DNA of 64,000 nt from a virus. Its lineage: Duplodnaviria > Caudoviricetes. Below, one piece after another: positions 24,346 through 50,773 of the stretch. The notes under the pieces were generated by a model. The model was not told the DNA's origin, ran no database searches, and was given only the letters and a program-made list of their open reading frames with translations. Every line of letters begins with the position of its first letter. Position 1 is the first letter of the stretch. Location: IMG/VR virus record IMGVR_UViG_3300021963_000022. The stretch is one strand, 5' to 3'. The position numbers and the translations under genes are program-made.

Positions 24346-25473
24346 TTATCCTTTATATTGTATAAATGCAACGCCGATGCGTTGCGGAAAGTAGCTGAAG
24401 GTAGATCCACTTAAAGTATGGCTGTGACTCCAACCATAATTACTGTGAAATGCTGACGGGCCACTTACATTTGTGGTGTACAATTGATAACTGGCACTGT
24501 GATAGTGGGGAGTATAAGGAGCATCTGTACTACTTAAAGCACCGACAGCATTGCTAGCAGTAGTGACATCCCATTGATTATCACTATACCCAATAATATA
24601 TCCGCCTAAATTAGGTGTACCGTTTAACCCATTACATAATTTCCAATATGTCGGTAATGCTGTTAAAATGCCAACATACATAATAATTATATCAGATTCT
24701 GGAAGACTGGGTGAAGTTAGTTTCCATAAGTTAACTAATTTACTTCGAATAGTTGATTGTGAGAAAGTTCCAAAAGCAGTATGGCTATGTGCTCCAGCAT
24801 AAGCCATATTATAGTTACGTATAGCTGATCCAGTGCCCATAGGTCTATAAGCACTACTGGCTGAAGCGTGATAGTGACCACTATCTGAACTTAAACTAAC
24901 TGGTATTGTAAAACTATAACCAGTACCTGTAGTACGAGTTAAATTGTCATTAGCACCATGCAAATAGTTATATCCTGTATCTACAAAAGGTGTCGAATTA
25001 GCCGCTGCATTTTGTTTTGTTACTAAAGTATTGGTGGGGAAATAAGTAGTAGCTCTAATGGATCGTAATAAATTAATTTTTTGTTTATTAAGCATTGTAT
25101 CGGTATTATCTGTTCTTCCGCCGGAAAAGGAGTGATTATGTGAAGAGGCGCCCGCACTCGCAGATGGTGCAATAGAACCTCCTGTATTACTAGTAACATT
25201 TTGAGTTACTGTTGATCCGCTGTGAGAACCTGCAAAACTTGTGGAACCATTGGCACTCATTCCTCCACTGACAGAGCTATAAGTAATATCTATTTGACTC
25301 TGATCTTGAGCTGACCAGATATAATAGCCATCTGCCTTACTATAACGAGTCCAGTCACCTGATGTCATATTTGCCATGGTATCATAATATGGTACTACAG
25401 CATTAGCTGGGATATGGATTGGCGGACTTGGCGGACCTGGATTAGTAAAAAAACCTGCTCTGGCTGCAAACAT
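24346..25473 (-). CDS. Distal/short tail fibre protein
   Basis: Ser/Gly/His-rich HxH motifs (HNHS, HYH, HSH) and a tail-collar-like WKLCNG.NGTPNL segment. Confidence 0.7.
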   Translation of the reverse strand: MFAARAGFFTNPGPPSPPIHIPANAVVPYYDTMANMTSGDWTRYSKADGYYIWSAQDQSQIDITYSSVSGGMSANGSTSFAGSHSGSTVTQNVTSNTGGSIAPSASAGASSHNHSFSGGRTDNTDTMLNKQKINLLRSIRATTYFPTNTLVTKQNAAANSTPFVDTGYNYLHGANDNLTRTTGTGYSFTIPVSLSSDSGHYHASASSAYRPMGTGSAIRNYNMAYAGAHSHTAFGTFSQSTIRSKLVNLWKLTSPSLPESDIIIMYVGILTALPTYWKLCNGLNGTPNLGGYIIGYSDNQWDVTTASNAVGALSSTDAPYTPHYHSASYQLYTTNVSGPSAFHSNYGWSHSHTLSGSTFSYFPQRIGVAFIQYKG

Positions 25474-31400: not shown

Positions 31401-31598
31401 TGTAATAATTACATCACCAACATTGCCTAGATGTACTTGATTAGTTACAGATAAATTTGCTGTAGTAAATGAATCAACTGCAACACTACTGGCTCCGGAT
31501 CCAACACGATTCCATACTCCCGGAGTACTGTCGTATTCGTATATTACACCATTGATTGTTACTTGCTGTCCGTTTGTGGGGTTTGCTGGCCAACTCAT
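25473..31598 (-). CDS. Long tail fibre protein, 2041 aa, repeat-built
   Basis: 15 copies of a QPNITSVG-type repeat and 6 copies of an FTQTWNN...SLL.DL.V...F.V.K.G repeat. SD AAGGA, and TAAATA on the minus strand at 31620-31625. Confidence 0.85.
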   Translation of the reverse strand: MSWPANPTNGQQVTINGVIYEYDSTPGVWNRVGSGASSVAVDSFTTANLSVTNQVHLGNVGDVIITGGGANYSLTTDGNGNLSWTAIGGAVVPGGINTQVQFNNAGYFEGSANLTFNTATDTLIATNFSGNGAGLTNISGGNVAGSVANANYATNANYSNFAGDSLTANYASFSNTANKAGTVTTAAQPNITSLGTISNLVVSGNINAGNINASTFGPYNGLIGATTPNLATFTNVTMLGNANVTGNVSAGNLNISNVIIANRLTGTLTTPSQPNITSLGTLSSLSINGQITGHLIPSEDQAFDIGTPNARWRTLYISANTIDLGGTTLSSSNGNITTNGNLTGDNVSIVGQFISTLATGTAPIVVYSNTLVANLNASLLNGLSATPSNVASTIVSRDTNRNFSANIVQARLYGQSNTAGTVITNAQPNITSIGTLTSLNLSGSISGNANANFAGNVSANFYRGNGSLLTGIPGNALVGTLSTDVLANTNVYLGTTAVSLGRASGSLSLSGVSIDGSAGSTDTAGTVTSNAQPNITSVGSLTGLTINGNLIVTGSTQYANVTTFNIKDPIIEMGGNPNGTPLSGDDGKDRGSLLHYFKDSAVDAFMGWDNSNSEFAFGSNVSVTSDVVTFVSYGNVRANYFLGNIIGNSTSALTAGTVTINAQPNITSVGTLTSLNIANGTVTNSAPLTFTQTWNNASAVFTGIKENIVDTNSAGESLLLDLQVGGTSKFKVDKTGIVTANQYIGNGSQLTNIPAANLVGYVPNANYAQYTGGADTVSNAYQPNITRVGNLTTLTVNTGEITGSNPVRLTQHWNNANRLFTLLEANVTDDASVVDSKLIDMIVNTSSVFTVEKSGNVSATNFIGNLIGNFSGNVLAPGSNREIIYNDSGVLGTNSNFTFNEASGTLTVKLANITTGPVTINTPVYFTQTWNNSGVTFTHLRTNITDTFSNINSLLLDLQVNNTTKFKVDKLGGVTGTSYSGSGAGLTNIPAGNITGLIANANYAAYSGNTNVANTAITVTTNAQPNITSVGNLVNLRANTGTISSNAPYTFIQTWSNGTEVFTGIRQNIVDSASDPSSLLLDLQVDGSSTFSVDKTGVVVSNVFIGEGGNLSNLQASNLVGEIPNANFATYSTYSNSTGNANIANTVTTNAQPNITSVGNLTGLSIASGSLTADKPLSIVQTWQNGAVTFNTISASITDTTSSVNSTLIDMKVGGTSKFKVTKSGNVTGTYFLGDGSLLSNIPTGAFSNYANYAGNITVNSQPNITSVGNLTSLTVAGDANITGNLTTLNANLGNVVSANYFVGNGAGLTNISAGELTGQVPNASISGTVYTNAQPNITSVGTLANVFTSGNVYIQQNELSNSNKVAFISAADNAGAATITLGSPTSLTLGQYNVASKLKTGDQLIISGAIGDSISLNKTYSITNVTANPSSNVILTVTPDLVTSAGGGANVSSISVIAQRRVIESSSTTVTGYFDVANVGTLTVGNLTATTVSNNAQPNITSVGTLTSLGVTGTVTAGNASLGNNVSANFFTGNGAFLTNILGNRVTGTVANANYATSAGSATTATSATTATSATTATSATTAGTVTTAAQGNITSVGNLTSLVVTGNLTAGNASLGNYVAANFFSGNGHLLSGVTAINANTVTTNAQPNITSTGNLTKLIVASGSLTDTAPISFSQTWNNANIGFTAVELSITNTKSLASSLLIDAKVGGTSQFSVSSAGNILAKNANLGNLATANYLGGTLTTAAQPNITSVGNLSTLTVTGNIDAGNINGSIFGPVQGIIGGSTPNIASFTDVDLSGNLFAGNANLGNHVAANFFSGNGSLLTGVSATTAVSATNAAALLQNTSTSTTAYLTFSTSSSNGNASAVINTNITANLSNTSITAKTFVGNLTGAATSAATVTNGAQTSITSVGTLTGLGVSGNLVANNIGANLITLKSYTETVLSPVNTGAAISPNVANGTIFNFIANANFTFNGLTGATTGSSATIIIKQDATGSRVMTSNIKFAANSKTLSTAAESIDIISVFYDGSAYYATLSKGYE
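26851..26916. repeat. 18-nt tandem repeat (GTTGTTGCACTAGTTGCG x3.7) encoding (SATTAT)n in the tail fibre
   Basis: Exact copies start at 26851, 26869 and 26887, with a partial copy at 26905. Confidence 0.95.
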
Positions 31599-37132: not shown

Positions 37133-38032
37133 ATGAAACAATATTTAAATTTACTACAAGATATATTAGATAACGGTGAACAAAAGGGTGATAGAACCGG
37201 CATCGGCACTATTAGCGTCTTTGGTCGTTCATTACGTTTTGATTTACGTAAAGGTTTTCCTGCAGTCACTACTAAGAAATTAGCATGGAAAGCTTGTTGC
37301 GGAGAACTATTATGGTTTATTGAAGGCAGTGGAGATGAACGTAGGCTAGCGGAAATCACACACGGTGATAAAGAAGATACTGTTACTATCTGGACACCTA
37401 ACGCACTTGCACCCTATTGGAAAAACAAAGCAAAGTTCGAAGGCGATCTCGGCCGTATATACGGAGTACAATGGCGTCATTGGAACAAATATCGTACAGA
37501 AAAAGATATGGGACCTGCACATAAAGGTGGCACACGCCTTGCTGTAGATAAAATGGAAGTTGACCAACTAACAACTCTTATCGAAGGATTAAAGAATGAT
37601 CCTAACAGTCGCAGACATATTCTAAGTGCATGGAATGTAGGCGAATTAGATGAGATGGCTTTACCACCATGTCATGTTATGAGTCAATTCCACGTTAACA
37701 GTAGCGGTGAACTAAGCTGTCAAATGTATCAGAGAAGCGTAGATGTATTTTTAGGTCTACCCTTTAACATTGCTAGCTATGCATTGCTTACTCATATGAT
37801 TGCACAAGTATGTGGCTTAACAGTGGGTGACTTGATTATCACTATGGGTGATACTCATATCTATAACAATCACATTGAACAAGTTAAAGAACAATTATTG
37901 CGTAGACCGTTTGGTCACCCAGCATTGATCTTGAATCCGGAAGTAACTGACATTACTAAATTTACAATGAATGATATTCACTTAGAAGGATACGAAAGTC
38001 ATGGCCCTATCAAAGCAACAATGGCAGTCTGA
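37133..38032 (+). CDS. thyA: Thymidylate synthase
   Basis: DRTG.GT, ELLWF, MALPPCH (catalytic Cys) and YQRS.D.FLGLPFNIASY. Asn is retained, so it is dUMP-type. Confidence 0.96.
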   Translation: MKQYLNLLQDILDNGEQKGDRTGIGTISVFGRSLRFDLRKGFPAVTTKKLAWKACCGELLWFIEGSGDERRLAEITHGDKEDTVTIWTPNALAPYWKNKAKFEGDLGRIYGVQWRHWNKYRTEKDMGPAHKGGTRLAVDKMEVDQLTTLIEGLKNDPNSRRHILSAWNVGELDEMALPPCHVMSQFHVNSSGELSCQMYQRSVDVFLGLPFNIASYALLTHMIAQVCGLTVGDLIITMGDTHIYNNHIEQVKEQLLRRPFGHPALILNPEVTDITKFTMNDIHLEGYESHGPIKATMAV

Positions 38033-38330
38033 CGAATTTACTAGACCCAAGTATCAGCTACATTTATCTGATACAGGTGAAGAAACTGTGAGTATTGAAA
38101 CAGTAGTACATACCATTCGAATGGGTGACGTTGAAGATCCTGACTTGTTTGTAGCACAACCTATATATGACTGGCAACAAACAGAAGCCGGTAAATGGGT
38201 AATGAAAAACTCCAACCCTACACCAAGCTGGCATCGTCAAGTAGATTATACTACTTATGGACAACTATATCTGATTAAAGCATATCTAACACCTGACCAA
38301 TTAACTTATTGGAAATTAAAATATGAGTAA
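38001..38330 (+). CDS. Small hypothetical protein, possible distant F-x-L-x-W family member
   Basis: Ends AYLTPDQLTYWKLKYE. Confidence 0.65.
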   Translation: MALSKQQWQSDEFTRPKYQLHLSDTGEETVSIETVVHTIRMGDVEDPDLFVAQPIYDWQQTEAGKWVMKNSNPTPSWHRQVDYTTYGQLYLIKAYLTPDQLTYWKLKYE

Positions 38331-39285
38331 TATATTAGTAACAGGTGGTCTGGGACTCATAGGACATAATGTAGTTAAACGTTTACAAGACATGGGTCAT
38401 CAAGTATCTATTATGGATACTCAGACAAACTACGGTATTATCCCTCAGTCTGAAATTGATTACTTGATCGGGGAACGTATTGCAGAACTTGACTTGAGTG
38501 GATATTACAAGAGTAATATTTGTGATAGTGAAACAGTTGGTCAAGTTTTCAACATCAAAAAGCCAGAGATCGTAATTCATATGGCTAGTTTCCCAAGACA
38601 GAAAGTGGTTAATGCTAATCCTGCACTGGGTAGTAGAACAATGAGTGAAGGGTTACTCAACTTATTAGAAGCTAGTGCAAAATATGAAGTATGTAAATTT
38701 ATTTACATCAGTAGTTCAATGGTGTACGGTGACTTCAATAATAATGTTACAGAAGATTATAATTGTAAGCCACAGGGTCAATATGGTATTATGAAACTAG
38801 CAGGTGAGTGGTTAGTTAAAGATTACGCACGTAAAGGTAATATGGTTTACACAATTATTCGTCCTAGTGCCGTATACGGTCCGTTAGACGTAGAAGATAG
38901 GGTTGTTGCTAAGTTTATGCTTACAGCAATGCGAGGAGGAACGTTGAATGTTAATGGTGCGAGTGAGACATTAGACTTCACGTATGTTGATGATGCGGCA
39001 GACGGTATCGTTGCGGCAGCATTAAGTAAGAATACAAATAATAAGACTTATAATATAACAAAAAGTCATAGCTACAGTTTGCTAGATGCGGCAAATCTAG
39101 CAGTTAGTATTGCTGGGTCAGGGACGGTAAATGTCCGTGATAAAGACCCGGACTTCCCTAGTAGGGGAGCATTGAATATTGATGCCGCAAGAAAAGACTT
39201 TGGATTCGACCCCAAAGTTGACGTAGAAGAAGGTTTCCGTAATTATCACAAATGGTTATCTAATTCTACATATTTTAATAAATAA
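38323..39285 (+). CDS. NAD-dependent epimerase/dehydratase (extended SDR)
   Basis: VTGGLGLIG, SSSMVYG, YGIMK (YxxxK) and DFTYVDD motifs. Confidence 0.9.
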   Translation: MSNILVTGGLGLIGHNVVKRLQDMGHQVSIMDTQTNYGIIPQSEIDYLIGERIAELDLSGYYKSNICDSETVGQVFNIKKPEIVIHMASFPRQKVVNANPALGSRTMSEGLLNLLEASAKYEVCKFIYISSSMVYGDFNNNVTEDYNCKPQGQYGIMKLAGEWLVKDYARKGNMVYTIIRPSAVYGPLDVEDRVVAKFMLTAMRGGTLNVNGASETLDFTYVDDAADGIVAAALSKNTNNKTYNITKSHSYSLLDAANLAVSIAGSGTVNVRDKDPDFPSRGALNIDAARKDFGFDPKVDVEEGFRNYHKWLSNSTYFNK

Positions 39286-39289
39286 CATT

Positions 39290-39760
39290 ATGTGGATAAT
39301 ATCTATTTTACCCGAATGGGCTTTTCATCTAATTCTCACAGTGGGAATTATAGGCACGGTTGCTGGATTTGCTTTGGGCATGATTCCTGCAATCAAACAA
39401 TATAAAATACCAATTCAAGTCATTAGTTTACTTGTACTTTCTTTGGGATTATATCTAGAGGGCGGATTAGCTGACTATAAAGAATGGGAAGCTAGAGTCA
39501 AAGAGATGGAAGCCAAAGTAGCCGTAGCTGAAGAAAAAGCTAAAACTGTGAATGTGGAAGTACAAGAAAAGATTGTTACGCAGACTAAAGTTATTAGAGA
39601 AAAAGGTAAAGACATAATCAAGTACATTGATAAAGAAGTTGTAAAAACTGAAGAAGTTATCAAGTATGTTGAGAATTGTCCTGTACCTAAAGCAATCATT
39701 GATATACACAATGACGCCGCAATACTAAACAAAGCCGCTGAACCAAAGGACAAGAAATGA
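39290..39760 (+). CDS. Inner-membrane spanin-like (Rz-like) protein
   Basis: N-terminal TM segments, then coiled coil and a C-terminal Cys. Overlaps a lipoprotein gene. Confidence 0.6.
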   Translation: MWIISILPEWAFHLILTVGIIGTVAGFALGMIPAIKQYKIPIQVISLLVLSLGLYLEGGLADYKEWEARVKEMEAKVAVAEEKAKTVNVEVQEKIVTQTKVIREKGKDIIKYIDKEVVKTEEVIKYVENCPVPKAIIDIHNDAAILNKAAEPKDKK

Positions 39761-40023
39761 AAGCATTGATTATATCATTAGCAATTGTTCTTGCAGGATG
39801 CAGTACCACTGTACCTGTTGCTAGAAAGTTTCCTGAAGCACCTCAAGTTCTTAAAGAAAAGTGCGAAAGACTTAAACTCATAGAGGGTGACAAAGTAGCA
39901 ATTACAGAAATGTTAAAAGTTATCGTACACAACTATTCGTTATACCACGAATGTTCTACAAAAGTAGAAGGTTGGCAAGAGTGGTATGAAACACAAAAGA
40001 AAATCTTCAACGAAGTCAAATGA
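39757..40023 (+). CDS. Outer-membrane lipoprotein, o-spanin-like (Rz1-like)
   Basis: Signal peptide with lipobox LAGC, Pro-rich segment and further Cys. Confidence 0.65.
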   Translation: MKALIISLAIVLAGCSTTVPVARKFPEAPQVLKEKCERLKLIEGDKVAITEMLKVIVHNYSLYHECSTKVEGWQEWYETQKKIFNEVK

Positions 40024-40277
40024 AATATACCATACTACTCGTATCTTTAATGATTTCGGGATGTGCTAGTAAGGATTATTCTGTGTATGTAGAAGCACAG
40101 AAAGCTATATCCAGAGACATTACTGTCACCGAAACTACTCGTATGCTAGCCATATCGGAGATGTTAAAAAGTCCCGATCCTAGTGTTAGACAGAACGGGA
40201 CTTTATTACTACAACAGTTACAGCAATCTAGACAACCTGTTGTAATTGAATTACCTAAGAATATATTTGGATTTTAA
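40020..40277 (+). CDS. Second small lipoprotein
   Basis: Signal peptide with lipobox ISGC. Confidence 0.65.
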   Translation: MKYTILLVSLMISGCASKDYSVYVEAQKAISRDITVTETTRMLAISEMLKSPDPSVRQNGTLLLQQLQQSRQPVVIELPKNIFGF

Positions 40278-40714
40278 TTACACCAAGAAGTCTTAGCTTC
40301 TCCGTAGTACTCACGTGCAAAACCCTGCTGGATAAGCATTCCTCTAAGACTTTTGCCGTCTAAAATAACATCACCCAAAACACGTCCGCCGTACTTATCC
40401 CAGTCTATTAGTATAATTTGCTTCTTTTGTGCATTAGCAATTTGTTGTTTTGTGAATGCACTAGCAGCCTCTCCGCGCTGTGCTTCACTTGGACATTGTG
40501 CTCTATGACCCTTCTCAGGAGTATCAACACCAAATACACGAATACTTAGTTCGGGTTTTAACGGCGCCGGCAAGAACGGTGCTTGAAATGCAATTGTGTC
40601 TCCATCGATAACTCTAGTAATCAATGCATCATATGTCACCCCTGCTTTTTGTTTTTGAGCAAACGCAGTAGTTGTCAAAGTGGATAATAGTAGTATAGAT
40701 ATAAGTTTTTTCAT
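40274..40714 (-). CDS. Thermonuclease (SNase-like) with signal peptide
   Basis: RVIDGDT, RVFGVDTPE and DKYGGRVL motifs. N-terminal MKKL...TAFA signal. Confidence 0.88.
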   Translation of the reverse strand: MKKLISILLLSTLTTTAFAQKQKAGVTYDALITRVIDGDTIAFQAPFLPAPLKPELSIRVFGVDTPEKGHRAQCPSEAQRGEAASAFTKQQIANAQKKQIILIDWDKYGGRVLGDVILDGKSLRGMLIQQGFAREYYGEAKTSWCN

Positions 40715-40765: not shown

Positions 40766-41563
40766 ATGACCCAAGAAATCATTGACATAGGCGAATTAGC
40801 TAATGACGGTACAGGTGACCCGTTACGTGTTGCCTTCGACAAAATCAATAACAACTTTACTCAATTATATAATACTGCTTCAGTAGATGGACCCAACGGT
40901 TCAGTACAATTTGCATTAGCAAATACAGTAGGAAATGTCACTACCTATTCTTTATCATCAAGTGCTAATTTGGTATTTAATTCTAGTACTAATCGACTTG
41001 ATATTAAAGGAACAATTGTTCCTTTAGTCCCAAACAATTTAAATATTGGTTCTACTGCTAATACAGTAGGCAACTTATACCTGAGTAATACAGGGTTAAA
41101 GTTAGGAAATGTATCATTTTCTGAATCTGCCAATACAGTAAGAATATTCAACACAAATGCTAATATTGATGCTAATATACAAGTTAATACAATAACCGCA
41201 TCTACTGTAGATGTAGCACAGATTGTTATTGCTAACACGCAATTTGATGGTAGTATTGCGACCAGTGAAGGGTCAGATCCCAATCAAGTGATATATCAGC
41301 TCCCTGAAACAAGTATACTTTCTGGTAAATTTGATATTAAATCAGTATCAGATACTTCTGCTAATAATCAATCAGTAACAATAACGATTAATAAATCTAC
41401 TTCGGGTGGAAGTGTTAAATATGTTGTATATGGAACAACATTTAACGGTGACCCTGTAACTAGATATGATGTAGATGTGGCATTCGGTAATGTTCGTATC
41501 AAAGTTAACCCATTGGTTAATGATCTTATTACGCATACTATATCTTATCAAGTAACAAACTAA
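40766..41563 (+). CDS. Baseplate/tail protein with T4 gp9/gp10-like N-terminus
   Basis: IDIGELANDGTGDPLRVAFDKINNNF resembles the gp10 N-terminal motif. Confidence 0.7.
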   Translation: MTQEIIDIGELANDGTGDPLRVAFDKINNNFTQLYNTASVDGPNGSVQFALANTVGNVTTYSLSSSANLVFNSSTNRLDIKGTIVPLVPNNLNIGSTANTVGNLYLSNTGLKLGNVSFSESANTVRIFNTNANIDANIQVNTITASTVDVAQIVIANTQFDGSIATSEGSDPNQVIYQLPETSILSGKFDIKSVSDTSANNQSVTITINKSTSGGSVKYVVYGTTFNGDPVTRYDVDVAFGNVRIKVNPLVNDLITHTISYQVTN

Positions 41564-41564: not shown

Positions 41565-41948
41565 ATGAGAGCTAAAGAATTTATTAACGAGGGTCGTACT
41601 GGCTCTATACAGGATGATGTAGCTAGAGCACTGCCCTCCACATATGCCATTCCTGAGTTAAAAGGTCAAGATCCATATATTCAATATAGATTTGGTGTAG
41701 CAATTGCAGGCGCTAAAGGTTCTAAGAAACGTGCGGAAGACGGTGTACCTAATTTTAGCAAAGAAAGTGCTTGGGGACAAAATCAAATTGTTGTAAGTTT
41801 TGACCCTTCTATTGATGAATGGTTGACCGATGCATTAAAAATCATGGGCATCAAAGGTAAGAAAAGATTAAGTACCATACACAGCGAAGAAGCTGATGAT
41901 GTGTCTACAAAAAGCCCTGTACAGGGGTTTAAAGGGTTTAAAAAATGA
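41565..41948 (+). CDS. Putative internal head protein, paralog 1
   Basis: Starts MRAKEFINE and ends SPVQGFKGFKK. Confidence 0.55.
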   Translation: MRAKEFINEGRTGSIQDDVARALPSTYAIPELKGQDPYIQYRFGVAIAGAKGSKKRAEDGVPNFSKESAWGQNQIVVSFDPSIDEWLTDALKIMGIKGKKRLSTIHSEEADDVSTKSPVQGFKGFKK

Positions 41949-42313
41949 GGGCTTCCGAATTTATATTCGAAAATAGTAAGGGTAAAATATCTAAACGTCA
42001 ACAAGAGTCTTCACGTGGACTAAACATATTTGCCGATAATCAATTTGATAGAACATATGATTTGAATCGTGTAATGATGGCAGTTGCCTGTAGTGATGGC
42101 ATCAATCCTATTGATATGAACTCTGAAAGCTGGTTTGGTAAAAATAATACAGCACATCCTTATACCAAAGAAGAACAAGATATGCTAAAATTAGCATACA
42201 AAGCTGCCGGTATAACTTATAAAGATTTAAATAAGGCTGATCTAAGAAGTAAAGAACTAGACAGTACATACAAAACAAGCCCAATAATTGGGTTTAAAGG
42301 CTTTAAAAAATAA
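41945..42313 (+). CDS. Putative internal head protein, paralog 2
   Basis: Starts MRASEFIFE and ends SPIIGFKGFKK. Confidence 0.55.
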   Translation: MRASEFIFENSKGKISKRQQESSRGLNIFADNQFDRTYDLNRVMMAVACSDGINPIDMNSESWFGKNNTAHPYTKEEQDMLKLAYKAAGITYKDLNKADLRSKELDSTYKTSPIIGFKGFKK

Positions 42314-42364: not shown

Positions 42365-43057
42365 ATGATCGATATTAACAACACCCTAGACCTCGTCAAA
42401 CTTAAATTCTATAATGAATGGCTATATACAGCACACATTTATGATGAGGGTGAATCTACGTTCCATAAACAACTAACAACTAAAGTTGTAATCGATTATA
42501 TAGATCCAATTAAATTAAAAAAAGATGCACTTATTTTAGACTTAGGTTGTGGTCCGGGTTATTTCTTAGATGAAATGAAAGAAAGAGGGTACACTAACTT
42601 AGTCGGTGTAACTCTTAGTCCAAATGACATTGACCTATGTAAGAGTAAAGGGCATAAAGTTAAAGAATACGATTTAAGCTTCTTACCACAGAAAGAAGGG
42701 TATTATGACGAATCGGTTGATTTTATCTTTTTGCGACATGCATTAGAACATAGTCCATATCCTATCTTTAGTTTAATGGAATATAATCGTATATTAAAAC
42801 AAGGTAGTAAGATTTATATTGAAGTGCCCGCCCCTGATCAGGAACGTAAGCATGAATATAACTTAAATCATTATAGTATTTTAGGTACTGCACAGCTAGC
42901 GGCATTACTTGAAAGAACTGGATTTACTATTGATACGTTTAATACAATGGATTTTACGTTAAATGTTGGTAAAAACGATGAAGATAAAGATATTGAAATT
43001 TCAGAAAGATATTTCTGTATTGTAGCTACAAAGCAACGTCCGCTGGATATTAAGTAA
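42365..43057 (+). CDS. Class I SAM-dependent methyltransferase
   Basis: ILDLGCGPG (motif I), RHALEH and LKQG..IYIEVP. Confidence 0.88.
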   Translation: MIDINNTLDLVKLKFYNEWLYTAHIYDEGESTFHKQLTTKVVIDYIDPIKLKKDALILDLGCGPGYFLDEMKERGYTNLVGVTLSPNDIDLCKSKGHKVKEYDLSFLPQKEGYYDESVDFIFLRHALEHSPYPIFSLMEYNRILKQGSKIYIEVPAPDQERKHEYNLNHYSILGTAQLAALLERTGFTIDTFNTMDFTLNVGKNDEDKDIEISERYFCIVATKQRPLDIK

Positions 43058-43075: not shown

Positions 43076-43354
43076 ATGACCTTTGATATATGGAAACAAT
43101 CTAAAATACAAAATGGTCTTGAAAATATCAAGACCGTTTCCTTACCCGCTGTTGCCTCTGACAATATTGATGAGATGAAACGTTTAGCAGGGATACCCTC
43201 TACTCAATCCGATGTAGGAATGAACATGAGTGTAACTGGCACCCAAAAGGGCGAATTAATGAAGAAGAATAACATTCAGCCGGGAACACCTGAATGGTTC
43301 AAGTTATGGTTTAGTTTACCATATATGACTGGCGAAAAGCCTATAGGAAAATAA
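43076..43354 (+). CDS. Hypothetical late protein
   Basis: 92 aa with a DEMKRLAGI motif. TAAATA at 43066-43071. Confidence 0.7.
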   Translation: MTFDIWKQSKIQNGLENIKTVSLPAVASDNIDEMKRLAGIPSTQSDVGMNMSVTGTQKGELMKKNNIQPGTPEWFKLWFSLPYMTGEKPIGK

Positions 43355-43355: not shown

Positions 43356-43784
43356 ATGGCCACTATAAACATAACGGTACAGAGTTTGCTCAATGCCGCA
43401 CAATATGATAGTTATGCAGTAGATAATGCAGGAACTATCGGTGAACTTAAAAATTCTATTGATGCTACTACAGGTTGCTTAATAGGTTGGTTTGATTTAG
43501 TATTCAATAATGAAGTATTAGATACCGCACAAACAATCAGTTCTTACGGTATAGTAGAAGGTTCAAGATTAAGAACTCATAATAAAATTTCACGATTATC
43601 TACACTACAAGATAGACAAGTTGCAAAACTTAGTTTGGCACAATTAGAAAGACTAGACCTTTCAAATACTAGACCATACTATAATATAGATGAACTGCCT
43701 ACCAAATATAGTGGTAACAGTGTTGTAGATAATTCTCATCCTACTGGATTGATTGAAGGTCGTCCGTGGAATAGCACTCCATAG
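43356..43784 (+). CDS. Ubiquitin-like (beta-grasp) N-terminal domain fused to a ~65-aa C-terminal domain
   Basis: aa 22-72 align without gaps to ubiquitin 17-67 with 15 identities counted by hand. No C-terminal Gly-Gly. Confidence 0.7.
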   Translation: MATINITVQSLLNAAQYDSYAVDNAGTIGELKNSIDATTGCLIGWFDLVFNNEVLDTAQTISSYGIVEGSRLRTHNKISRLSTLQDRQVAKLSLAQLERLDLSNTRPYYNIDELPTKYSGNSVVDNSHPTGLIEGRPWNSTP

Positions 43785-43824
43785 TAAATTCTATATCGTA
43801 ACCAAAATTTTATAAATACGCAAT

Positions 43825-45372
43825 ATGAGCGGAACCCCTACCTTAATCAAAACACCTTATACAAAGACAAAGTTTAATTCTGATAAAGAGCTAGAAGATT
43901 TTGTTAAATGTTGTGATCCTGAAATGGGTTATCTATACTTTATGGATAACTTTTTTTACATACAACATCCTACAAAAGGTTCTATGCTGTATCACCCCTG
44001 GGATTATCAAAAACGGTTAATACATACATATCATACCTATCGCTATTCAATTAGCTTGATGCCACGACAAACAGGTAAGTCAACATCAGCCGCAGGGTAT
44101 CTACTTTGGTATGCTATGTTTGTACCGGATAGTACTATTCTTATTGCGGCACACAAATACACAGGTGCACAAGAGATTATGCAACGTATTCGTTATGCGT
44201 ATGAGAACTGTCCCGATCACATTAAAGCAGGTGTAACAACATACAACAAAGGCTCACTAGACTTTGAGAACGGATCACGTATTGTTAGTGCTACAACTAC
44301 AGAAAATACAGGTCGCGGTATGTCTATTACACTATTATACTTGGATGAGTTTGCGTTTGTTCGACCTACAATTGCTACAGAATTCTGGACATCTATTACT
44401 CCTACATTAGCAACAGGTGGTAAAGCGATTATCACTAGTACTCCTAATAGTGATGAGGATCAATTTGCTTTGATTTGGAAGGGTGCTAATAAAACAGAAG
44501 ATGAGTTTGGTGATACCACCGAGCTCGGTGTTAACGGTTTTAAATCATACAGAGCATTCTGGCAAGAGCATCCTGATCGTAATCAAGAATGGGCTGACCA
44601 GATGAAGGCCCAGTTAGGTGAAGACAGATTTAGACGAGAGATTGGTTGCGAGTTCATTATTGCAGATGAGACATTAATTGCCCCTACTAGGTTAATTGAT
44701 TTAGATGGTATCGAACCTGTATTCCGTCAGGGACAGATACGTTGGTATAAGAAACCTGAAAAGGGGAATATCTATATAGTTGCACTAGATCCTGCTGTCG
44801 GTACAGGTGGTGACAATGCCGCAATACAGATTTATGAAGCAAATACTACGACACAAATCGGTGAATGGAAACATAATAGAACAGATATACCGTCACAAAT
44901 TAAACTGATAGCACAGATTAACAAATACATTGTTGAATGTACTACTCAACCAGACAATTTATACTATAGTGTAGAAGTCAACGGAGTAGGCGAGGCCGCC
45001 CTAGTATCATTGAACGAATATGGTCTAGCTAACATACCTGGATCTTTCTTAAGCGAGCCGGGCAAAAAGAAACGAGGGTTCAATACAACTAATAAGAGTA
45101 AACTAGCAGCCTGTTCTAAGTTTAAAACATTAGTTGAGAGTAATAAGTTGACTATTAACAGTCGTAGTTTGGTAACAGAACTTAAAAGTTTTGTAGCCTC
45201 AGGTGGTAGTTATGCCGCAAAAATAGGTGAATCAGACGATTTGGTAACGTCTTCATTGTTAGTTGTGCGTATGTTACAGAACTTAAGTGAATATAACTAT
45301 GATTTAGATAACTATATTCGTGACCATGATGAAGTAATTATGCCCTTACCTTTCTATGCCATAATGGGATAA
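43825..45372 (+). CDS. terL: Terminase large subunit (T4 gp17-like)
   Basis: PRQTGKS (Walker A), LYLDEFAF (Walker B), ITSTPN, F.REIGCEF, ALDPA and DD.V nuclease motifs. Confidence 0.95.
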   Translation: MSGTPTLIKTPYTKTKFNSDKELEDFVKCCDPEMGYLYFMDNFFYIQHPTKGSMLYHPWDYQKRLIHTYHTYRYSISLMPRQTGKSTSAAGYLLWYAMFVPDSTILIAAHKYTGAQEIMQRIRYAYENCPDHIKAGVTTYNKGSLDFENGSRIVSATTTENTGRGMSITLLYLDEFAFVRPTIATEFWTSITPTLATGGKAIITSTPNSDEDQFALIWKGANKTEDEFGDTTELGVNGFKSYRAFWQEHPDRNQEWADQMKAQLGEDRFRREIGCEFIIADETLIAPTRLIDLDGIEPVFRQGQIRWYKKPEKGNIYIVALDPAVGTGGDNAAIQIYEANTTTQIGEWKHNRTDIPSQIKLIAQINKYIVECTTQPDNLYYSVEVNGVGEAALVSLNEYGLANIPGSFLSEPGKKKRGFNTTNKSKLAACSKFKTLVESNKLTINSRSLVTELKSFVASGGSYAAKIGESDDLVTSSLLVVRMLQNLSEYNYDLDNYIRDHDEVIMPLPFYAIMG

Positions 45373-45389: not shown

Positions 45390-46772
45390 ATGCCTAAAAA
45401 CGCCGACTCATTAAATTCAGAATTATTCGATTTTCTACAAAGCCGTGGGTTTAAACCTACGCTACTAGACACCTCAGGTAAAGAAATTCCTGTACCAGAA
45501 GAAGCAGAAGTCTTTCAATTTGACTTTGAAATTGATGGGGAAAACTACGGAACTGCCACTATCAGTATTGATGGACTGCATAAATTAGTAGTATACTTTG
45601 GTGAGGGAATCGCAAACAGCCCCAAAACTAGTAAGGATGATAGCGAATCATGGTATAGTTTATTGAGACAGTTTAAGTATTTTTCTCAAAAGCATCAACT
45701 AAGCTTTGAGACCAAGAACATTGATAGATTGAAGCACGATATGGCTAAAAGAGAACACACTAAACAGTTAGATGAGGGTTATTACCCAATGGGTAATAAA
45801 GCTAGTTACAGCGACAATATCCCTACAACTAAGATGATTATTAAACATAAAAGAAAGATGGAAGAGGGTGAACAACGTTTCCGTCAAATCGATAGAATAT
45901 TCATTGAAAATGCAATTGGTGAACGTGTATTAGCTCCTAGTAATAAGCCTGGATTAGCTAGGACATTTGCAAGACATATCGCTGAAGGTGGTAGACCATA
46001 TGATGAAAGATGGAATCACCTTATGGAATTATGTGAAGAATATGATAAGATGGCAGGATTTGTTCGTGCCACTCGCAACAACCAATTTAATGAAGCCGCA
46101 CAACCTTTAGTCTCGGAGGGTGTCAATCATTATATGAAATTACGTGAGACATTACACAAGATGTCAGGACGTAAAGGATATTCTAACTACTTTGAATCTT
46201 GGACTCCTGCAGTAATGGAACAAGACCAAGAAGACGGACTAGACGAAATGTTTATGAATTCAAGTCTTGATCCTAGAATTGAATGTGCAATGCCTATATT
46301 GAATAGATTAAAGAAAAATCTTAGCTCTCCACCTATGTTGCCACAAGTACAAGAATTAGAAGAATGGGCTGATAGTGTAATCGATATGGATAAAGATGCT
46401 ATGCCTATGGACATGAAACCGGCCGAGCTCGGTGAAGAAGAAAAGATTGCAGGGCGACATGATCCAGCAGACTTTGACGATATGGTAAAACGTGTTGGTG
46501 TTAAAGCTAAAAAGAAGCCAGTTGATATGACTGACCTAGCACGTAGACTACATGCGGCAATGGCTAAAGACAAGAAAAAAGAAGAAAAAACTGATGAAAG
46601 TTTGGCAGGAGCAACAATGGGTGGCATTGCTGGAGCAGTATTAACTAAATCACCTTCTGGAGCAATGACCGGAGCTAGCATGGGAAGTGATATTGAAGAC
46701 GTTATCAAAAATGAAAGCCTAGAATTAATTGCTGACCCGCTATTAAGATTTAAGAAATTGTCAGGACTATAA
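45390..46772 (+). CDS. Putative prohead core/scaffold-like protein
   Basis: Follows terL. Acidic, with many L/I-x-E sites, ELEEWADSVI and a C-terminal KKLSGL. Confidence 0.5.
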   Translation: MPKNADSLNSELFDFLQSRGFKPTLLDTSGKEIPVPEEAEVFQFDFEIDGENYGTATISIDGLHKLVVYFGEGIANSPKTSKDDSESWYSLLRQFKYFSQKHQLSFETKNIDRLKHDMAKREHTKQLDEGYYPMGNKASYSDNIPTTKMIIKHKRKMEEGEQRFRQIDRIFIENAIGERVLAPSNKPGLARTFARHIAEGGRPYDERWNHLMELCEEYDKMAGFVRATRNNQFNEAAQPLVSEGVNHYMKLRETLHKMSGRKGYSNYFESWTPAVMEQDQEDGLDEMFMNSSLDPRIECAMPILNRLKKNLSSPPMLPQVQELEEWADSVIDMDKDAMPMDMKPAELGEEEKIAGRHDPADFDDMVKRVGVKAKKKPVDMTDLARRLHAAMAKDKKKEEKTDESLAGATMGGIAGAVLTKSPSGAMTGASMGSDIEDVIKNESLELIADPLLRFKKLSGL

Positions 46773-46773
46773 A

Positions 46774-48285
46774 ATGAAAGAACTTCAACTATTAGAGTCT
46801 TGGGCAGATAGTATTATTGCTAATGAAGCAGTACAAGATCGTCCACTAACAAGAGATCAGGATATTCAATATCAGGCATCCAGAAAGTATTCCGATCGTA
46901 GTCCAGAGCAAGCATTACAAATGTATGTAGCTGATAAATTAGCTAGCTCTGAACAAATGGATTATGAACAGAACAAACTTATCAATGCACAGAAACGTGA
47001 AAATGAAAAGTTACGTAGAAGCTTACAAGATTTGGGTCAAGAACTAACTGACCATGAGCGTGTAGCACAAGATACTGAACAACAAGTTCAACGATTAAAA
47101 GATTTAAGTGCCAAATTACGTCCTGCAGGTGAAATACAACAGGCTACTACAAAAGCAAGTGCTGATAAAGTAGAAGCTATGTTAGCCGATGTAGAGAAAT
47201 TAAAAACATTACCTGGTATGGATGAAAAGAAATACAAAGAACTTGCTGATAAGGTTAACCAAATCAAACAAGGTGCAGGTGATGAAGAAGTGCAGAAAGT
47301 TCAATTGGCACTGGCTGTATTGTCACAGAAACAACAGGTTGATGACCAGATGTTTAACACCGTAATGGCTAGACTAGATGATACACAGACTAAACTGGAT
47401 GCTAAAGAATTACGTTTTAGAAAATATATTACCAAAAAGAGCGGAGATATTGAAGCTCAAACAAGAACACACGGTGATGAACTTAAAAAATATTCACAAA
47501 TAGTTAACAAATATAAAGAAGAACTTGATGGCTTCAGTGACTACATGAATACTACAAAAAAAGAAGTTGACAACTCTAAAAAAGAGGTAGAACAAGCTAA
47601 ACTAGAAGTAGGACAAGCTAAACTAGAAGTTGAAAAAACTAAACAAGAAGCAATTGCATTGACTAATGAACTTGAATTTAGATTCTCACCTGAAGTAAGA
47701 AAATCAACAACACGTACTAAGAAGAAACGTGTACCCTCAGTAGATGATATGTTTAAAGCATCATCTAAAGAAATTAACAAATTAAAACCTAATGCTAGTC
47801 CATCTGATGTAGCTGCTGCCACAAAAGCTGGAATAGCTAAACCTGCTAAAGCAGGACCTGATATATCTAAACTAGATACTGACTTTGAGAGACAACGTAG
47901 TTTTGGTATGCAAGCAAAAGATGACGAAAAAGAACCTAAAGACCCTACACAAATGAACGAAGATTTACGACAATATGATGATGCAGACTTCTTAGAATGG
48001 GCTATGGAAAACGTTCCAATTATCATTAGACATTTCTATAGTCGTTACCCAGAGTTAGAAGATACTATACCAAAAGAACAAGTACGTGATATGGTTGAAA
48101 AATACCTTCCTTACTTGTATCAATACGATGATGTGGATGTTGAATTGATGAACACCTTCTTAGATATTGTAAATAGTAAAATTAAAAAACAAGGTAAGAT
48201 CCCAGTTCAGAAAGACTTGTTTAGTTTGGAAGAACAGTTTGAACAACAATTGGACAAACTAATTGGGTTAGAATACATAAAATAA
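46774..48285 (+). CDS. Coiled-coil protein, putative prohead core/scaffold-like
   Basis: N-terminal LLESWADSII and long heptad repeats, including a 21-nt near-tandem repeat encoding QAKLEV x2. Confidence 0.5.
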   Translation: MKELQLLESWADSIIANEAVQDRPLTRDQDIQYQASRKYSDRSPEQALQMYVADKLASSEQMDYEQNKLINAQKRENEKLRRSLQDLGQELTDHERVAQDTEQQVQRLKDLSAKLRPAGEIQQATTKASADKVEAMLADVEKLKTLPGMDEKKYKELADKVNQIKQGAGDEEVQKVQLALAVLSQKQQVDDQMFNTVMARLDDTQTKLDAKELRFRKYITKKSGDIEAQTRTHGDELKKYSQIVNKYKEELDGFSDYMNTTKKEVDNSKKEVEQAKLEVGQAKLEVEKTKQEAIALTNELEFRFSPEVRKSTTRTKKKRVPSVDDMFKASSKEINKLKPNASPSDVAAATKAGIAKPAKAGPDISKLDTDFERQRSFGMQAKDDEKEPKDPTQMNEDLRQYDDADFLEWAMENVPIIIRHFYSRYPELEDTIPKEQVRDMVEKYLPYLYQYDDVDVELMNTFLDIVNSKIKKQGKIPVQKDLFSLEEQFEQQLDKLIGLEYIK

Positions 48286-48423: not shown

Positions 48424-49419
48424 ATGGCTTCATTAGCAGAAATTCGTGCCCGTATCTCGGCACAAGAAAACAAATCAAACAACAAGGGTTCTAACACCCA
48501 ATCTGACAACTCAGTATACGCACATTGGAATATGGATGAAGGCACAACTGCTACCATTCGTTTCTTACCTGATGGCAATACAAAGAACGATTTCTTCTGG
48601 GTTGAAAAGCAAATCATCAAACTCCCATTCAATGGTGTTAAGGGTGATCCTAATGTAAAACAAATTGTAGTACAAGTACCCTGCGTAGAGATGTATGGGG
48701 ACAGTTGTCCTGTCTTGGCAGAAGTTCGTCCTTGGTACAAAGACGAAAGTTTGAAAGAACTAGCAAACAAATATTGGAAGAAACGCAGTTATATCTTTCA
48801 AGGTTTTGTACGTCAGAACCCACTAGGTGATGACAAAACACCAGCGAATCCTATTCGCAGATTCATTATCAGTCCACAAATTATTCCAATTATTAAAGCT
48901 GGATTGATGGACCCAGAGATTGAAGAATTACCAACAGACTATTTGCGTGGTCTTGACTTTAACGTTAAGAAAACAAGCAAAGGTGGTTATGCTGATTATT
49001 CAACAAGCAATTGGGCACGTAAAGAATCAACACTAACAGAAGCAGAACAAGCGGCAATCGAAGCACATGGTTTATTTGATTTGTCTGAGTTCTTACCTAA
49101 GAAGCCAACAGCGGCTGAGTTAAACATTATCAAAGAAATGTTTGAAGCATCGGTTGATGGTCGTCCTTATGATAATGAACGTTGGGGCAATTACTATCGT
49201 CCATATGGACTTGAAGCACCTGCAGGGTCGACAGCGGATCAACATTCAGCTCCTACTGAAAATAGGGCACCCGCAACAGCACCAGTAGCAGAATCTTCAG
49301 CTCCTTGGGATGATGCACCAGTTACAACTTCTGCACCAATTGAAGTACCTAAGACAGCTCCGGCAAGTGACAAAGCACAAGACATTCTAGCAATGATTCG
49401 TGCCAGAAAAACTGCTTAA
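48424..49419 (+). CDS. Single-stranded DNA-binding protein (T4 gp32-like)
   Basis: ATIRFLP...FFW, VPC.EMYGDSCPV, YWKKRSY.FQ, GGYADYSTS.W and a low-complexity tail. Confidence 0.88.
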   Translation: MASLAEIRARISAQENKSNNKGSNTQSDNSVYAHWNMDEGTTATIRFLPDGNTKNDFFWVEKQIIKLPFNGVKGDPNVKQIVVQVPCVEMYGDSCPVLAEVRPWYKDESLKELANKYWKKRSYIFQGFVRQNPLGDDKTPANPIRRFIISPQIIPIIKAGLMDPEIEELPTDYLRGLDFNVKKTSKGGYADYSTSNWARKESTLTEAEQAAIEAHGLFDLSEFLPKKPTAAELNIIKEMFEASVDGRPYDNERWGNYYRPYGLEAPAGSTADQHSAPTENRAPATAPVAESSAPWDDAPVTTSAPIEVPKTAPASDKAQDILAMIRARKTA

Positions 49420-49425
49420 AAGAAA

Positions 49426-49447
49426 ATGGGGGAGTTACCTCCCTCAT
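49426..49447 (+). terminator. Hairpin after the SSB gene
   Basis: ATGGGGGAG-TTAC-CTCCCTCAT, with a weak U tail. Confidence 0.5.
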
Positions 49448-49461
49448 CTTAAGGAGAACAT

Positions 49462-49698
49462 ATGACATTACCAGATGAAAGATACCGTGCTTTAAAGCAA
49501 GGTAAAAAACTACTGGAAGAGTTATGCGATCCGGGCAAGACTCCTAGAGTACCAAGTATTGTAAGAGACCGTGCCCGTGCCGCACTAAGACACTTCCCGA
49601 ACGAACATGAGTTAGATAGAATTGCGGATCAATGCCCAGACTACCTTGACAAAATTTCGTTTAGTGATAAACTAATACATAGACAACTAGGAGATTAA
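49462..49698 (+). CDS. BPSL0761-like small protein
   Basis: MTLPDERYRAL...RDRARAALRHFP pattern. SD AAGGAG. Confidence 0.6.
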   Translation: MTLPDERYRALKQGKKLLEELCDPGKTPRVPSIVRDRARAALRHFPNEHELDRIADQCPDYLDKISFSDKLIHRQLGD

Positions 49699-49699
49699 A

Positions 49700-50773
49700 T
49701 TGGTAAAACCATTCGATGTTAGTAAATTTAGAAAAGATATAACAAAAAGTATTGAAGGATTAAGTATTGGATTCAACGACCCAACTGACTGGATTAGCAC
49801 AGGAAATTACGCACTTAACTATCTTATTAGTGGTGATTTTAACAAAGGGGTTCCTTTGGGCAAGGTTACTGTATTTGCTGGTGAAAGCGGTGCAGGCAAG
49901 TCCTTTATTTGCTCCGGGAACCTTATACGACACGCACAACAACAAGGAATCTTTGTTGTTCTCATTGATTCGGAGAATGCGTTAGACGAAGCATGGTTAC
50001 ACGCATTAGAGGTATCTACTGCTGAAGATAAGTTATTAAAACTCAACATGGCAATGATTGATGATGTGGGTAAGACTATTTCAACATTCGTTAAAGACTA
50101 TAAAAATTTATCAGAGGCTGATAGACCAAAAGTCTTGTTTGTACTTGATTCATTGGGAATGTTGTTGACCCCCACAGACGTAAATCAGTTTGAAGCAGGT
50201 GATATGAAAGGTGACATGGGTCGTAAGCCTAAAGCACTAACAGCACTTGTTCGTAACTGTGTTAATATGTTTGGTTCATTGAACATTGGCTTAGTTGCTA
50301 CTAATCACACATATGCTAGTCAAGATATGTTTGATCCAGATGATAAAATCTCAGGTGGTCAAGGTTTTGTTTACGCATCAAGTATCGTTGTTGCTATGAA
50401 GAAACTTAAACTTAAAGAAGATGAAGATGGTAATAAGATTAGTGATGTGCGAGGTATTCGTGCGGCATGTAAGATTATGAAAACTCGCTATGCGAAACCA
50501 TTTGAATCAGTGCAAGTTAAGATTCCATATGAAACAGGTATGAGCCCTTACTCAGGCTTATTAGATATGATTGAGAAGGCTGAACTTGTTAAGAAAGAAG
50601 GTAACAGTCTTGTGTATACGACACTTGATGGTGAAATCATTAAGAAGTTTCGTAAAGCATGGGAAGCAAATACTGATGGTTGCTTAGATAAAGTAATGAA
50701 TGAGTATAGTCAAAAATCAACGTCAACGTCAAAGATAAGTAATGTACAACCTGAGGAGGAGGGTACAGAATGA
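49700..50773 (+). CDS. uvsX: RecA/UvsX recombinase
   Basis: GESGAGKS (Walker A), IDSENALD, VLDSLG, KGDMGRK, TNHTY and ISGG.G motifs. TTG start with SD GGAG. Confidence 0.93.
   Translation: MVKPFDVSKFRKDITKSIEGLSIGFNDPTDWISTGNYALNYLISGDFNKGVPLGKVTVFAGESGAGKSFICSGNLIRHAQQQGIFVVLIDSENALDEAWLHALEVSTAEDKLLKLNMAMIDDVGKTISTFVKDYKNLSEADRPKVLFVLDSLGMLLTPTDVNQFEAGDMKGDMGRKPKALTALVRNCVNMFGSLNIGLVATNHTYASQDMFDPDDKISGGQGFVYASSIVVAMKKLKLKEDEDGNKISDVRGIRAACKIMKTRYAKPFESVQVKIPYETGMSPYSGLLDMIEKAELVKKEGNSLVYTTLDGEIIKKFRKAWEANTDGCLDKVMNEYSQKSTSTSKISNVQPEEEGTE

Follow-up and report, generated by a model that had tools for sequence, protein, structure and literature searches.

What does a protein with a ubiquitin fold do among the late genes of a tailed phage? 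We addressed this question for a gene in a 64,000-nucleotide stretch of viral DNA (the window), which belongs to an IMG/VR viral record of 180 kb (IMGVR_UViG_3300021963_000022) with an estimated completeness of ~52%. The gene (positions 43356-43784, plus strand) encodes a protein of 142 amino acids, designated P0001 in the following; loci compared with the window are designated by L and a number. An original prediction, made from the DNA letters, had recognized a eukaryote-type ubiquitin fold in a late gene next to the terminase and had favored a decoy acting against host defense enzymes. As described below, the fold was confirmed, and the domain was found to be part of a larger module that forms the constant portion of many phage proteins with exchangeable heads. 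The genomic context of this module suggests a structural role in host recognition on the virion surface.

P0001 contains a ubiquitin-family domain

The open reading frame (ORF) of P0001 is real and its translation is as originally quoted. Its start is preceded by an AGGA ribosome-binding site and lies 1 nt past the stop of the preceding gene, which encodes a 92-amino-acid protein (p92), and the opposite strand across the ORF is closed by many stops. In a Pfam search, residues 20-72 matched the ubiquitin family PF00240 with an E-value of 1.2e-5 and a score of 25.4 bits, which is exactly the gathering cut-off and makes the match borderline for this copy; relatives scored 34-38.5 bits. The ungapped alignment with ubiquitin on which the original prediction was built withstood a recount against the ubiquitin sequence printed by HMMER. 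Residues 21-73 of P0001 align with ubiquitin residues 16-68 and share 15 identities, namely V17, T22, I23, K27, I30, G35, L43, F45, L50, T55, Y59, I61 and L67, as listed previously, plus S57 and S65. Most of them are shared residues that determine the fold (T22, K27, I30, L43, F45, L50, T55, Y59, I61, L67).

When a profile of 27 family sequences was compared with the PDB, mono-ubiquitin was found with an E-value of ~4.5e-4 and the list of matches held ubiquitin-type ubiquitin-like domains (UBLs) only. ThiS/MoaD was never matched in the Pfam search or in the PDB search with the family profile, and P0001 has neither the profile match nor the C-terminal Gly-Gly that characterize a sulfur carrier of this type. 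The domain is thus closer to ubiquitin than to ThiS/MoaD, as had been proposed. An AlphaFold2 (AF2) model of the P0001 family (alignment A1, 27 sequences) reached a predicted local distance difference test score (pLDDT) of 89.9 and a predicted template modeling score (pTM) of 0.79. The UBL is composed of strands 3-9, 17-23, 46-50 and 71-76 and helix 28-39, and residues 1-78 superpose on ubiquitin and ISG15 (Foldseek, VIA-align), i.e., they form a beta-grasp. The loop between the first two strands contains a two-residue insertion relative to ubiquitin, and its VQSLLN sequence is invariant in alignment A1. The N-terminal domain of P0001 is therefore a genuine member of the ubiquitin family, and profile and fold comparison agree on this point.

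The domain lacks the features required for conjugation. A Gly-Gly motif is absent from the entire protein, as noted before, and there is no conserved Gly at the end of the UBL. The equivalents of R74-G75-G76 of ubiquitin are S79-R80-L81, after which the chain enters a conserved helix, and only one of the seven ubiquitin lysines, K27, is retained. Because of these properties, the domain is not a conjugatable modifier. A hydrophobic patch of the L8/I44 type is partly kept, with L11 being invariant and V49 mostly conserved. No E1 (PF00899, ThiF-type) and no Prok-JAB (PF14464) was matched in the window's 180-kb record (~52% complete), which extends to the whole record what had been stated for the window; E2 was not searched. 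PF14464 had no match in five relatives either, one of which is a 100%-complete genome of 360 kb (E1 was not searched there).

The ubiquitin-like domain and its tail form a single module

The UBL continues into a conserved tail of 65 residues, as the original prediction had described. This tail was modeled confidently together with the UBL (pTM see above) and consists of a helix (residues 84-101), a beta-hairpin (residues 116-125), an ELPT.Y motif and a GRPW motif (residues 135-138). It includes the invariant residues L114, P115, G135, R136, P137 and W138, and its invariant columns are as many as those of the UBL. The GRPW motif is invariant and marks the end of the module: short forms stop 0-8 residues later, long forms run on. 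Our survey of module architectures was based on an exhaustive profile search over 1.84 billion representatives, in which positions 1-139 were always matched as a single block. A separate survey yielded more than 150 homologues of 138-146 amino acids. Candidates for natural proteins consisting of the tail or the UBL alone turned out to be GTG-started fragments, frameshifts or an internal deletion and were rejected. UBL, helix, hairpin and GRPW are one compact module of 140 amino acids. The suggestion that a ubiquitin domain had been fused to a separately occurring C-terminal domain had to be corrected accordingly: the two parts are never found apart, and what varies is an addition that follows the tail or, in a single case, precedes the UBL.

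Prohead proteases of the T4 type cleave at sites of the pattern L/I-x-E. The bond between Glu and Gly in the C-terminal sequence GLIEGRPW was considered as such a site and rejected, as other residues take the place of the Glu within the family (LVLGRPW, LTTGRPW, AIPGRPW).

In each of the five relatives' contigs, including the complete 360-kb genome, the module is present as a single copy. PHROGs contains no family for P0001, and a feature search of the ESM-Atlas returned sub-threshold, unrelated rows only. Among 50,697 GenBank phage records, nucleotide and protein searches revealed no homologue of the module; long-form queries matched these records only via their LamG heads. No description of the module was found in PHROGs, in annotations or in the literature searched.

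The module carries exchangeable heads

The profile search placed the module at the N-terminus of many phage proteins of 214-536 amino acids. Their C-terminal heads belong to the classes ConA-like/Laminin_G_3, GLEYA/PA14, ILEI and Gly_rich_2, and there are additional, unassigned extensions. A cluster of the type 'ILEI + ubiquitin' in the ESM-Atlas is 100% viral, in agreement with BFVD. The LamG heads have homologues among the annotated virion structural proteins of a Flavobacterium phage and of two cyanophages, S-PM2 and S-RSM4, and they also match baseplate and virion-structural PHROGs. The reverse arrangement, in which a repeat-rich part of 315 amino acids is fused ahead of the module, was present on four contigs.

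A set of 80 IMG/VR loci comprised 61 short and 19 long forms. By position, the long forms are orthologues of the window gene; the gene order of both L018 and L019, for example, is methyltransferase, 91-amino-acid protein, 88-amino-acid protein and UBL-GLEYA protein. In a tree of the module computed by maximum likelihood, the two forms are interleaved, with nine changes between them, at least five of which are forced by well-supported branches. Gain or loss of heads has thus occurred repeatedly in this family. The nearest relatives of the window copy in the tree (L020, L021, L025) are long forms, and the similarity between P0001 and the 230-amino-acid protein of L021 ends exactly at residue 141. 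For these reasons, the window copy looks like a derivative that has lost its head.

The module gene is found in two genomic settings

Analysis of the gene neighborhoods in the 80 loci led to the distinction of two settings, type 1 and type 2 (lineage 2). Type 1 comprises the lineage of the window with its large terminase (TerL) and relatives, plus loci with an L2_547-like gene in the place of TerL. Its core cassette consists of the gene for an acidic protein of ~90 amino acids, the module gene and the gene for a variable protein of 319-771 amino acids. The acidic protein was encoded upstream of the module gene in 54 of the 80 loci, the variable protein downstream of it in 49. The full order in the TerL lineage is gp9/10N-like protein, small proteins, methyltransferase, p92, ~90-amino-acid acidic protein, module, variable protein and TerL. 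The variable protein has a conserved motif of ~45 residues at its N-terminus, and some members contain GNV...VTQGT.PW repeats. Its C-terminal domain belongs to phrog_1645 ('virion structural protein') and shares 50-54% identity with structural proteins from podovirus HMO-2011 and from many cyanomyoviruses. In the AF2 model, the N-terminal 86 residues are disordered and the part that follows forms lectin-like jelly rolls. The receptor-binding domain of mycobacteriophage TM4 gp23 was the best match to these in the PDB; ConA-type lectins, glucanases and receptor-binding domains of clostridial neurotoxins came next. Co-folding of the module (A3) with the conserved N-terminal 90 residues of the downstream protein (A2) gave a value of 0.01 against a mark of 0.32, a result that counts neither for nor against an interaction.

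In the type-2 setting, the start of the module gene overlaps or directly adjoins the stop of a tail-fiber gene for 447-1299 amino acids. The products of these genes have a tail-fiber PHROG match, a weak Mtd_N match and a Peptidase_G2 intramolecular-chaperone (IMC) domain, and a gp15-type sheath stabilizer is encoded near the module genes of this type. Judged by the predicted functions of its neighbors, the module gene lies amid components of the host-recognition machinery in both settings.

Seven of ten lineage-2 fibers tested, including that of L088, matched the Pfam family E1_FCCH at a fixed position (residues ~145-197; genes listed in Table 1). In two of them the match exceeded the cut-off of 29.5 bits (36.5 bits in L065, 30.5 bits in L059). 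As a sign of an E1 enzyme these matches were rejected, since they represent barrels of ~50 residues in fiber or giant structural proteins and controls from E. coli and Caulobacter match too. One could imagine a structural docking pair of a UBL plug and an E1_FCCH-like fiber barrel or, alternatively or additionally, a UBL cap that would shield the host-recognition apparatus from Bil-type conjugation; we consider either improbable. The barrel also occurs in giant proteins of 5696 and 6462 amino acids encoded elsewhere, far from the UBL gene, and it was found neither in the genome record of the window nor in the complete relative that carries the module. Owing to this distribution, the barrel is not specific to neighbors of the UBL.

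Some observations concern the mobility and the wider surroundings of the cassette. In L020 (6454-10100), the closest relative with a full cassette, two p92-like copies (86 and 91 amino acids) flank the genes for the ~90-amino-acid protein, a UBL protein of 230 amino acids and a receptor-binding-type protein of 699 amino acids; in the window and in L021 there is a single p92 copy, and most of the cassette is missing. This hints at gain or loss of the cassette by recombination between p92 copies. The T4-like cyanophage S-RIM12 (L102; NC_047715.1, 94148-105353) contains a homologue of the variable protein in an island between the genes for the small (gp16) and large (gp17) terminase subunits, the same hot spot just upstream of TerL as in the jumbo phages. 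In a more distant module-bearing jumbo lineage (L002, 10818-12420; contig of P0130), genes for ribosomal protein S21, HSP20, ClpS and a cytidylyltransferase lie 1.6-2.4 kb past the cassette on its downstream side, a few genes away.

The locus in the window is reduced and under purifying selection

In the window, the order of genes in one direction is gp9/gp10-N-like protein, two small paralogues, S-adenosylmethionine (SAM)-dependent methyltransferase, p92, UBL protein, TerL, 460-amino-acid protein and 503-amino-acid protein, with the TerL start located 40 nt 3' of the P0001 gene. The reduced order p92-module-TerL is shared by the window, L100, L101, L021 and L037. The position next to the terminase, which had been emphasized originally, is correct for the window, but most relatives have a gene for 443-771 amino acids in between, and the adjacency to TerL is a derived state of the window's sub-lineage. 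P0001 is 95% identical to its counterpart in L100 and 87% to that in L101. Comparison with these two genes gave ratios of non-synonymous to synonymous substitution rates (dN/dS) of 0.19-0.37, with similar values for both halves of the gene. The P0001 gene is under purifying selection, from which it follows that even the bare module serves a function by itself.

A sequence resembling a T4-type late promoter, TATAAATA, is present in the gap between the UBL and TerL genes (43811-43818), but was dismissed, as four copies in 64 kb compare with 12.6 expected by chance. Sigma-70-like and terminator-like sites in the window did not exceed chance level.

Proposed role of the module and alternative explanations

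From this context we infer, with a probability of roughly 55%, that the module serves the host-recognition apparatus on the virion surface of jumbo myoviruses as a structural adaptor or anchor. The ubiquitin fold and the helix-hairpin tail would form a compact docking unit, the constant part of an adhesin or fiber assembly, in which the ubiquitin fold is employed as a non-conjugated structural domain. In many relatives, this unit would bear an exchangeable sugar-binding head, and it would assemble non-covalently with the neighboring variable receptor-binding protein or tail fiber at the surface of the virion. In the lineage of the window, the locus would have lost head, small acidic partner and receptor-binding gene and kept the bare module as a plug or adaptor. 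Presence in the virion, docking and the identity of the partner are deduced here from architecture and synteny. The original prediction had also placed the UBL on or in the virion, and this part fits a late structural gene and an assembly or display module.

Several findings weigh against such a role. The ~90-amino-acid partner, an adjacent fiber and a phrog_1645 protein were not detected in the available 180 kb (~52% complete), and the module is absent from all cultured phages in INPHARED. For residues 78-142 there was no fold match beyond the family's own phage relatives, the tail not having been folded alone. Nearby genes encode small proteins with N-termini that resemble capsid-targeting sequences, and a head-associated role is possible.

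Instead of being a permanent part of the virion, the module might act as an assembly chaperone or checkpoint when the neighboring fiber or adhesin folds and is attached, and be removed or released afterwards. The lineage-2 gene is translationally coupled directly after the tail-fiber gene, the classic position of a fiber chaperone, and a tail protein with a UBL at its N-terminus has been reported for phage lambda, in which gpK cleaves this domain off gpI (PMC12908700). The end of the short forms coincides with the point after GRPW at which the long forms branch off and could be a processing site. However, no Prok-JAB was found in the 180 kb of the window's phage or in the five relatives, one of them complete, the UBL ends without Gly-Gly or a conserved Gly, and the lineage-2 fibers have an IMC chaperone domain of their own. 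Moreover, the lineage of the window retains the gene under purifying selection with no fiber gene adjoining it, and in the model W138 is located in a short beta-bridge (strand 138-139; pLDDT ~66-81 for residues 131-142), which suggests that the GRPW end has a structural role and is no exposed site of cleavage. We therefore regard a chaperone function as unlikely.

A second alternative is a capsid decoration protein, with the module displaying lectin heads on the surface of the head. Hoc follows the same logic of a small anchor that bears lectin or Ig heads, and the module gene is found in a neighborhood of head and packaging genes, next to TerL. In addition, phrog_1645 and phrog_13484 are categorized as 'head and packaging', and small proteins encoded nearby have capsid-targeting-like N-termini. 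PHROG categories are coarse, however, and in lineage 2 the module gene is coupled to a bona fide tail-fiber gene and located near that of the gp15-type sheath stabilizer. The downstream partner in type-1 loci has a fold of the receptor-binding type and a disordered N-terminal anchor as is typical for fibers. In view of the tail-related neighbors, a Hoc-like function is quite improbable.

Even less probable is the preferred interpretation of the original prediction, a ubiquitin mimic that would block E1, E2 or deubiquitinase (DUB) enzymes of Bil, Bub or CBASS-Cap2-type systems or mask the fiber from Ubl conjugation. Ubiquitination-like defense pathways do exist in bacteria (bioRxiv 10.1101/2023.09.26.559546), and the fold of P0001 is truly that of the ubiquitin family, its L8/I44-type patch being partly kept. 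Apart from the fold, however, there is no link to any defense system. The C-terminus does not present Gly-Gly but enters a packed tail, and only K27 is retained. Fused to lectin heads and present as a single copy in receptor-binding or fiber cassettes across lineages, the module is unlike a typical anti-defense gene, which is small, early and accessory.

A small terminase or packaging accessory can practically be dismissed: although the gene directly precedes TerL in the window, L100, L101, L021 and L037, as does gp16 in T4-like phages, a receptor-binding-type gene for 443-771 amino acids intervenes in most relatives, other lineages have the module nowhere near TerL, orthologues carry lectin heads, neither a helix-turn-helix nor a TerS family was matched (Pfam, PHROGs), and the AF2 model is a compact monomer with no oligomerization core.

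Neighboring genes and further features of the window

The coordinates of P0001, its domains and its neighbors in the window as well as those of the fiber genes with an E1_FCCH match are summarized in Table 1.

Table 1. Features of the P0001 locus in the window and E1_FCCH-bearing fiber genes of lineage-2 loci. Positions preceded by a locus designation refer to that locus.
Feature	Position	Strand	Basis
P0001 gene, short 'headless' form of the ubiquitin-fold module	43356-43784	+	ORF and translation, 142 amino acids
Ubiquitin-type beta-grasp domain, residues 1-77	43356-43586	+	Pfam PF00240, AF2, Foldseek, VIA-align
Conserved module tail, residues 78-142	43587-43781	+	same AF2 model; invariant residues
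p92, 92-amino-acid protein, function not assigned	43076-43354	+	ORF; conserved neighbor in the lineage
Large terminase (TerL), T4 type, downstream neighbor	43825-45372	+	Pfam Terminase_6N/6C, phrog_36964
SAM-dependent methyltransferase, co-directional block	42365-43057	+	Pfam Methyltransf_23/11; synteny in type-1 loci, L100, L101
265-amino-acid protein, T4 gp9/gp10-like N-terminal domain, opens the conserved block	40766-41563	+	phrog_677; syntenic in type-1 loci
Two genes (460 and 503 amino acids) downstream of TerL	45390-48285	+	synteny with PA5oct structural proteins
E1_FCCH-bearing fiber gene	L088:3921-6980		
E1_FCCH-bearing fiber gene	L065:1493-2836		
E1_FCCH-bearing fiber gene	L059:1860-4892		
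E1_FCCH-bearing fiber gene	L078:3698-5893		
E1_FCCH-bearing fiber gene	L084:4452-6761		
E1_FCCH-bearing fiber gene	L067:5216-6982		
E1_FCCH-bearing fiber gene	L055:3102-7001		

TerL was identified by Terminase_6N (E = 4e-17) and phrog_36964 (E = 1e-111). With TerL of PA5oct, a jumbo phage of Pseudomonas, it shares 49% identity; its relationship to that of Atu_ph07, GAP32 and T4-like phages is more distant. The genes for the 460- and 503-amino-acid proteins match the positions of PA5oct gp279 and gp278, which are annotated as 'structural protein, ESI-MS/MS' (electrospray ionization tandem mass spectrometry), and the 460-amino-acid product and PA5oct gp278 have phrog_13484 ('virion structural protein') in common. 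The 265-amino-acid protein matched phrog_677 (E = 6e-13) and, under the Pfam cut-off, T4_gp9_10_N (E = 4.5e-4); by these matches its N-terminal domain is like that of a baseplate wedge or tail-fiber connector. No Pfam or PHROG family was found for p92, a conserved protein whose gene precedes that of the module in type-1 loci.

Internal head proteins of T4 carry the capsid-targeting sequence MKTYQEFIAE. The small paralogues encoded at 41565-41948 and 41945-42313 (plus strand; 127 and 122 amino acids) begin with MRAKEFINE and MRASEFIFE, respectively, and both end with GFKGFKK. Their N-termini resemble the T4 sequence, including the protease-type site I-x-E. The ~90-amino-acid acidic proteins encoded upstream of the UBL gene in relatives start with MRATEFIRGLLDLID, and in S-RIM12 a 108-amino-acid protein encoded upstream of the structural-protein homologue starts with MKSYNEFISE. 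The paralogues belong to no Pfam or PHROG family. According to the concept of capsid-targeting sequences (PMC9026906), such small proteins may be packaged or ejected head proteins.

A minus-strand ORF for 2041 amino acids (25473-31598) has no Pfam family. It shares repeats with a fiber-like protein of 338 amino acids whose gene precedes the UBL gene in L005, and these repeats also occur in ORFs for 759, 1052 and 2213 amino acids in the record of the window's phage. The four large ORFs probably encode giant fiber or structural proteins.

Upstream of the block that starts with the 265-amino-acid protein, the region 39290-40714 contains ORFs for 88 and 85 amino acids with lipoprotein-type N-termini (...LAGCSTT, ...ISGCASK), which are preceded by a membrane-like protein of 156 amino acids and followed, on the opposite strand, by a 146-amino-acid homologue of staphylococcal nuclease (SNase, E = 5.5e-12) with a signal-peptide-like start. 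This region is possibly a lysis or spanin-like cassette with a secreted nuclease; in L005, an Endonuclease_NS gene and a weak match to LysC are found at this position. On both sides (37133-39285 and 48424-50773), the structural block is bordered by genes of auxiliary and replication functions, which include those for thymidylate synthase (E = 3e-107), an NAD-dependent sugar epimerase/dehydratase (E = 2.5e-42), a RecA/UvsX-like recombinase (E = 2e-12) and, below the cut-off, a gp32-like ssDNA-binding protein (E = 1.3e-4).

Comparison with known systems

Ubl conjugation has recently emerged as an anti-phage weapon of bacteria that is directed against tail proteins, and Bil attaches a Ubl to a phage tail fiber protein. 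P0001 resembles the Ubls of Bil/Bub and of CBASS (Cap2/Cap3) in being a ubiquitin-like protein at the interface of phage and host. These Ubls, however, are encoded by the host in operons with E1, E2 and DUB genes and have a conjugatable C-terminal Gly, whereas P0001 is phage-encoded and non-conjugatable, and the module is genetically fused to structural or lectin domains. Ubiquitin itself, ISG15 and viral ubiquitins likewise differ from P0001, which has no Gly-Gly, K27 as the only lysine retained, an insertion in the first loop and a permanent fusion to a tail of 65 residues.

Functional analogues of the proposed anchor can be found in gp38 of the T2/S16 type, in the hinge proteins gp35/gp36 of T4 and in Hoc. 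As in gp38- or Hoc-type adhesins, a small constant module is encoded beside fiber genes, distal binding domains are swappable and heads have been exchanged repeatedly. The likeness is one of function; a relationship in sequence or fold to gp38, gp35/gp36 or Hoc was neither seen nor tested for, and the constant part of P0001 is a ubiquitin fold, which to our knowledge none of these proteins uses for attachment. If the docking role is true, the module would be a new attachment device for receptor-binding proteins that could aid the annotation of jumbo phages and host-range engineering, a case from prokaryotic viruses of ubiquitin as a pure structural adaptor, and a handle on the exchange of heads upon a fixed anchor. 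What the window itself contributes is more modest, namely a headless orphan copy of this module. The family as a whole has hundreds of metagenomic members, none of which is annotated, represented in a PHROG or present in a cultured phage.

The closest known case is the N-terminal UBL of the lambda protein gpI, which was reportedly predicted by Iyer and Aravind in 2006. The tail tip protein gpI belongs to the TAPI family, and its ubiquitin-like domain is processed by gpK (PMC12908700, conference report). Both gpI and P0001 are proteins from late structural modules of tailed phages in which an N-terminal UBL beta-grasp is followed by a structural part, and the UBL of gpI serves virion assembly and not conjugation signaling (PMC12908700), as would be the case for the module. 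Unlike gpI, P0001 is closer to ubiquitin proper (PF00240), lacks Gly-Gly and gave no match to the Pfam family Lambda_tail_I at E ≤ 1. Its neighbors are p92 and TerL, with no adjacent gpK-like JAB+NlpC/P60 gene, and the module does without a JAB or gpK-like protease in the window's record and in the complete relative. It is further distinguished by the fused helix-hairpin-GRPW tail, by swappable lectin heads and by its occurrence in jumbo myoviruses, gpI being a protein of siphophages. Ubiquitin-like domains of tailed phages have previously been known mainly from lambda gpI. The family described here represents a second, independent use, in which a ubiquitin-related domain appears as the constant module of a swappable lectin or adhesin system in uncultured jumbo phages.

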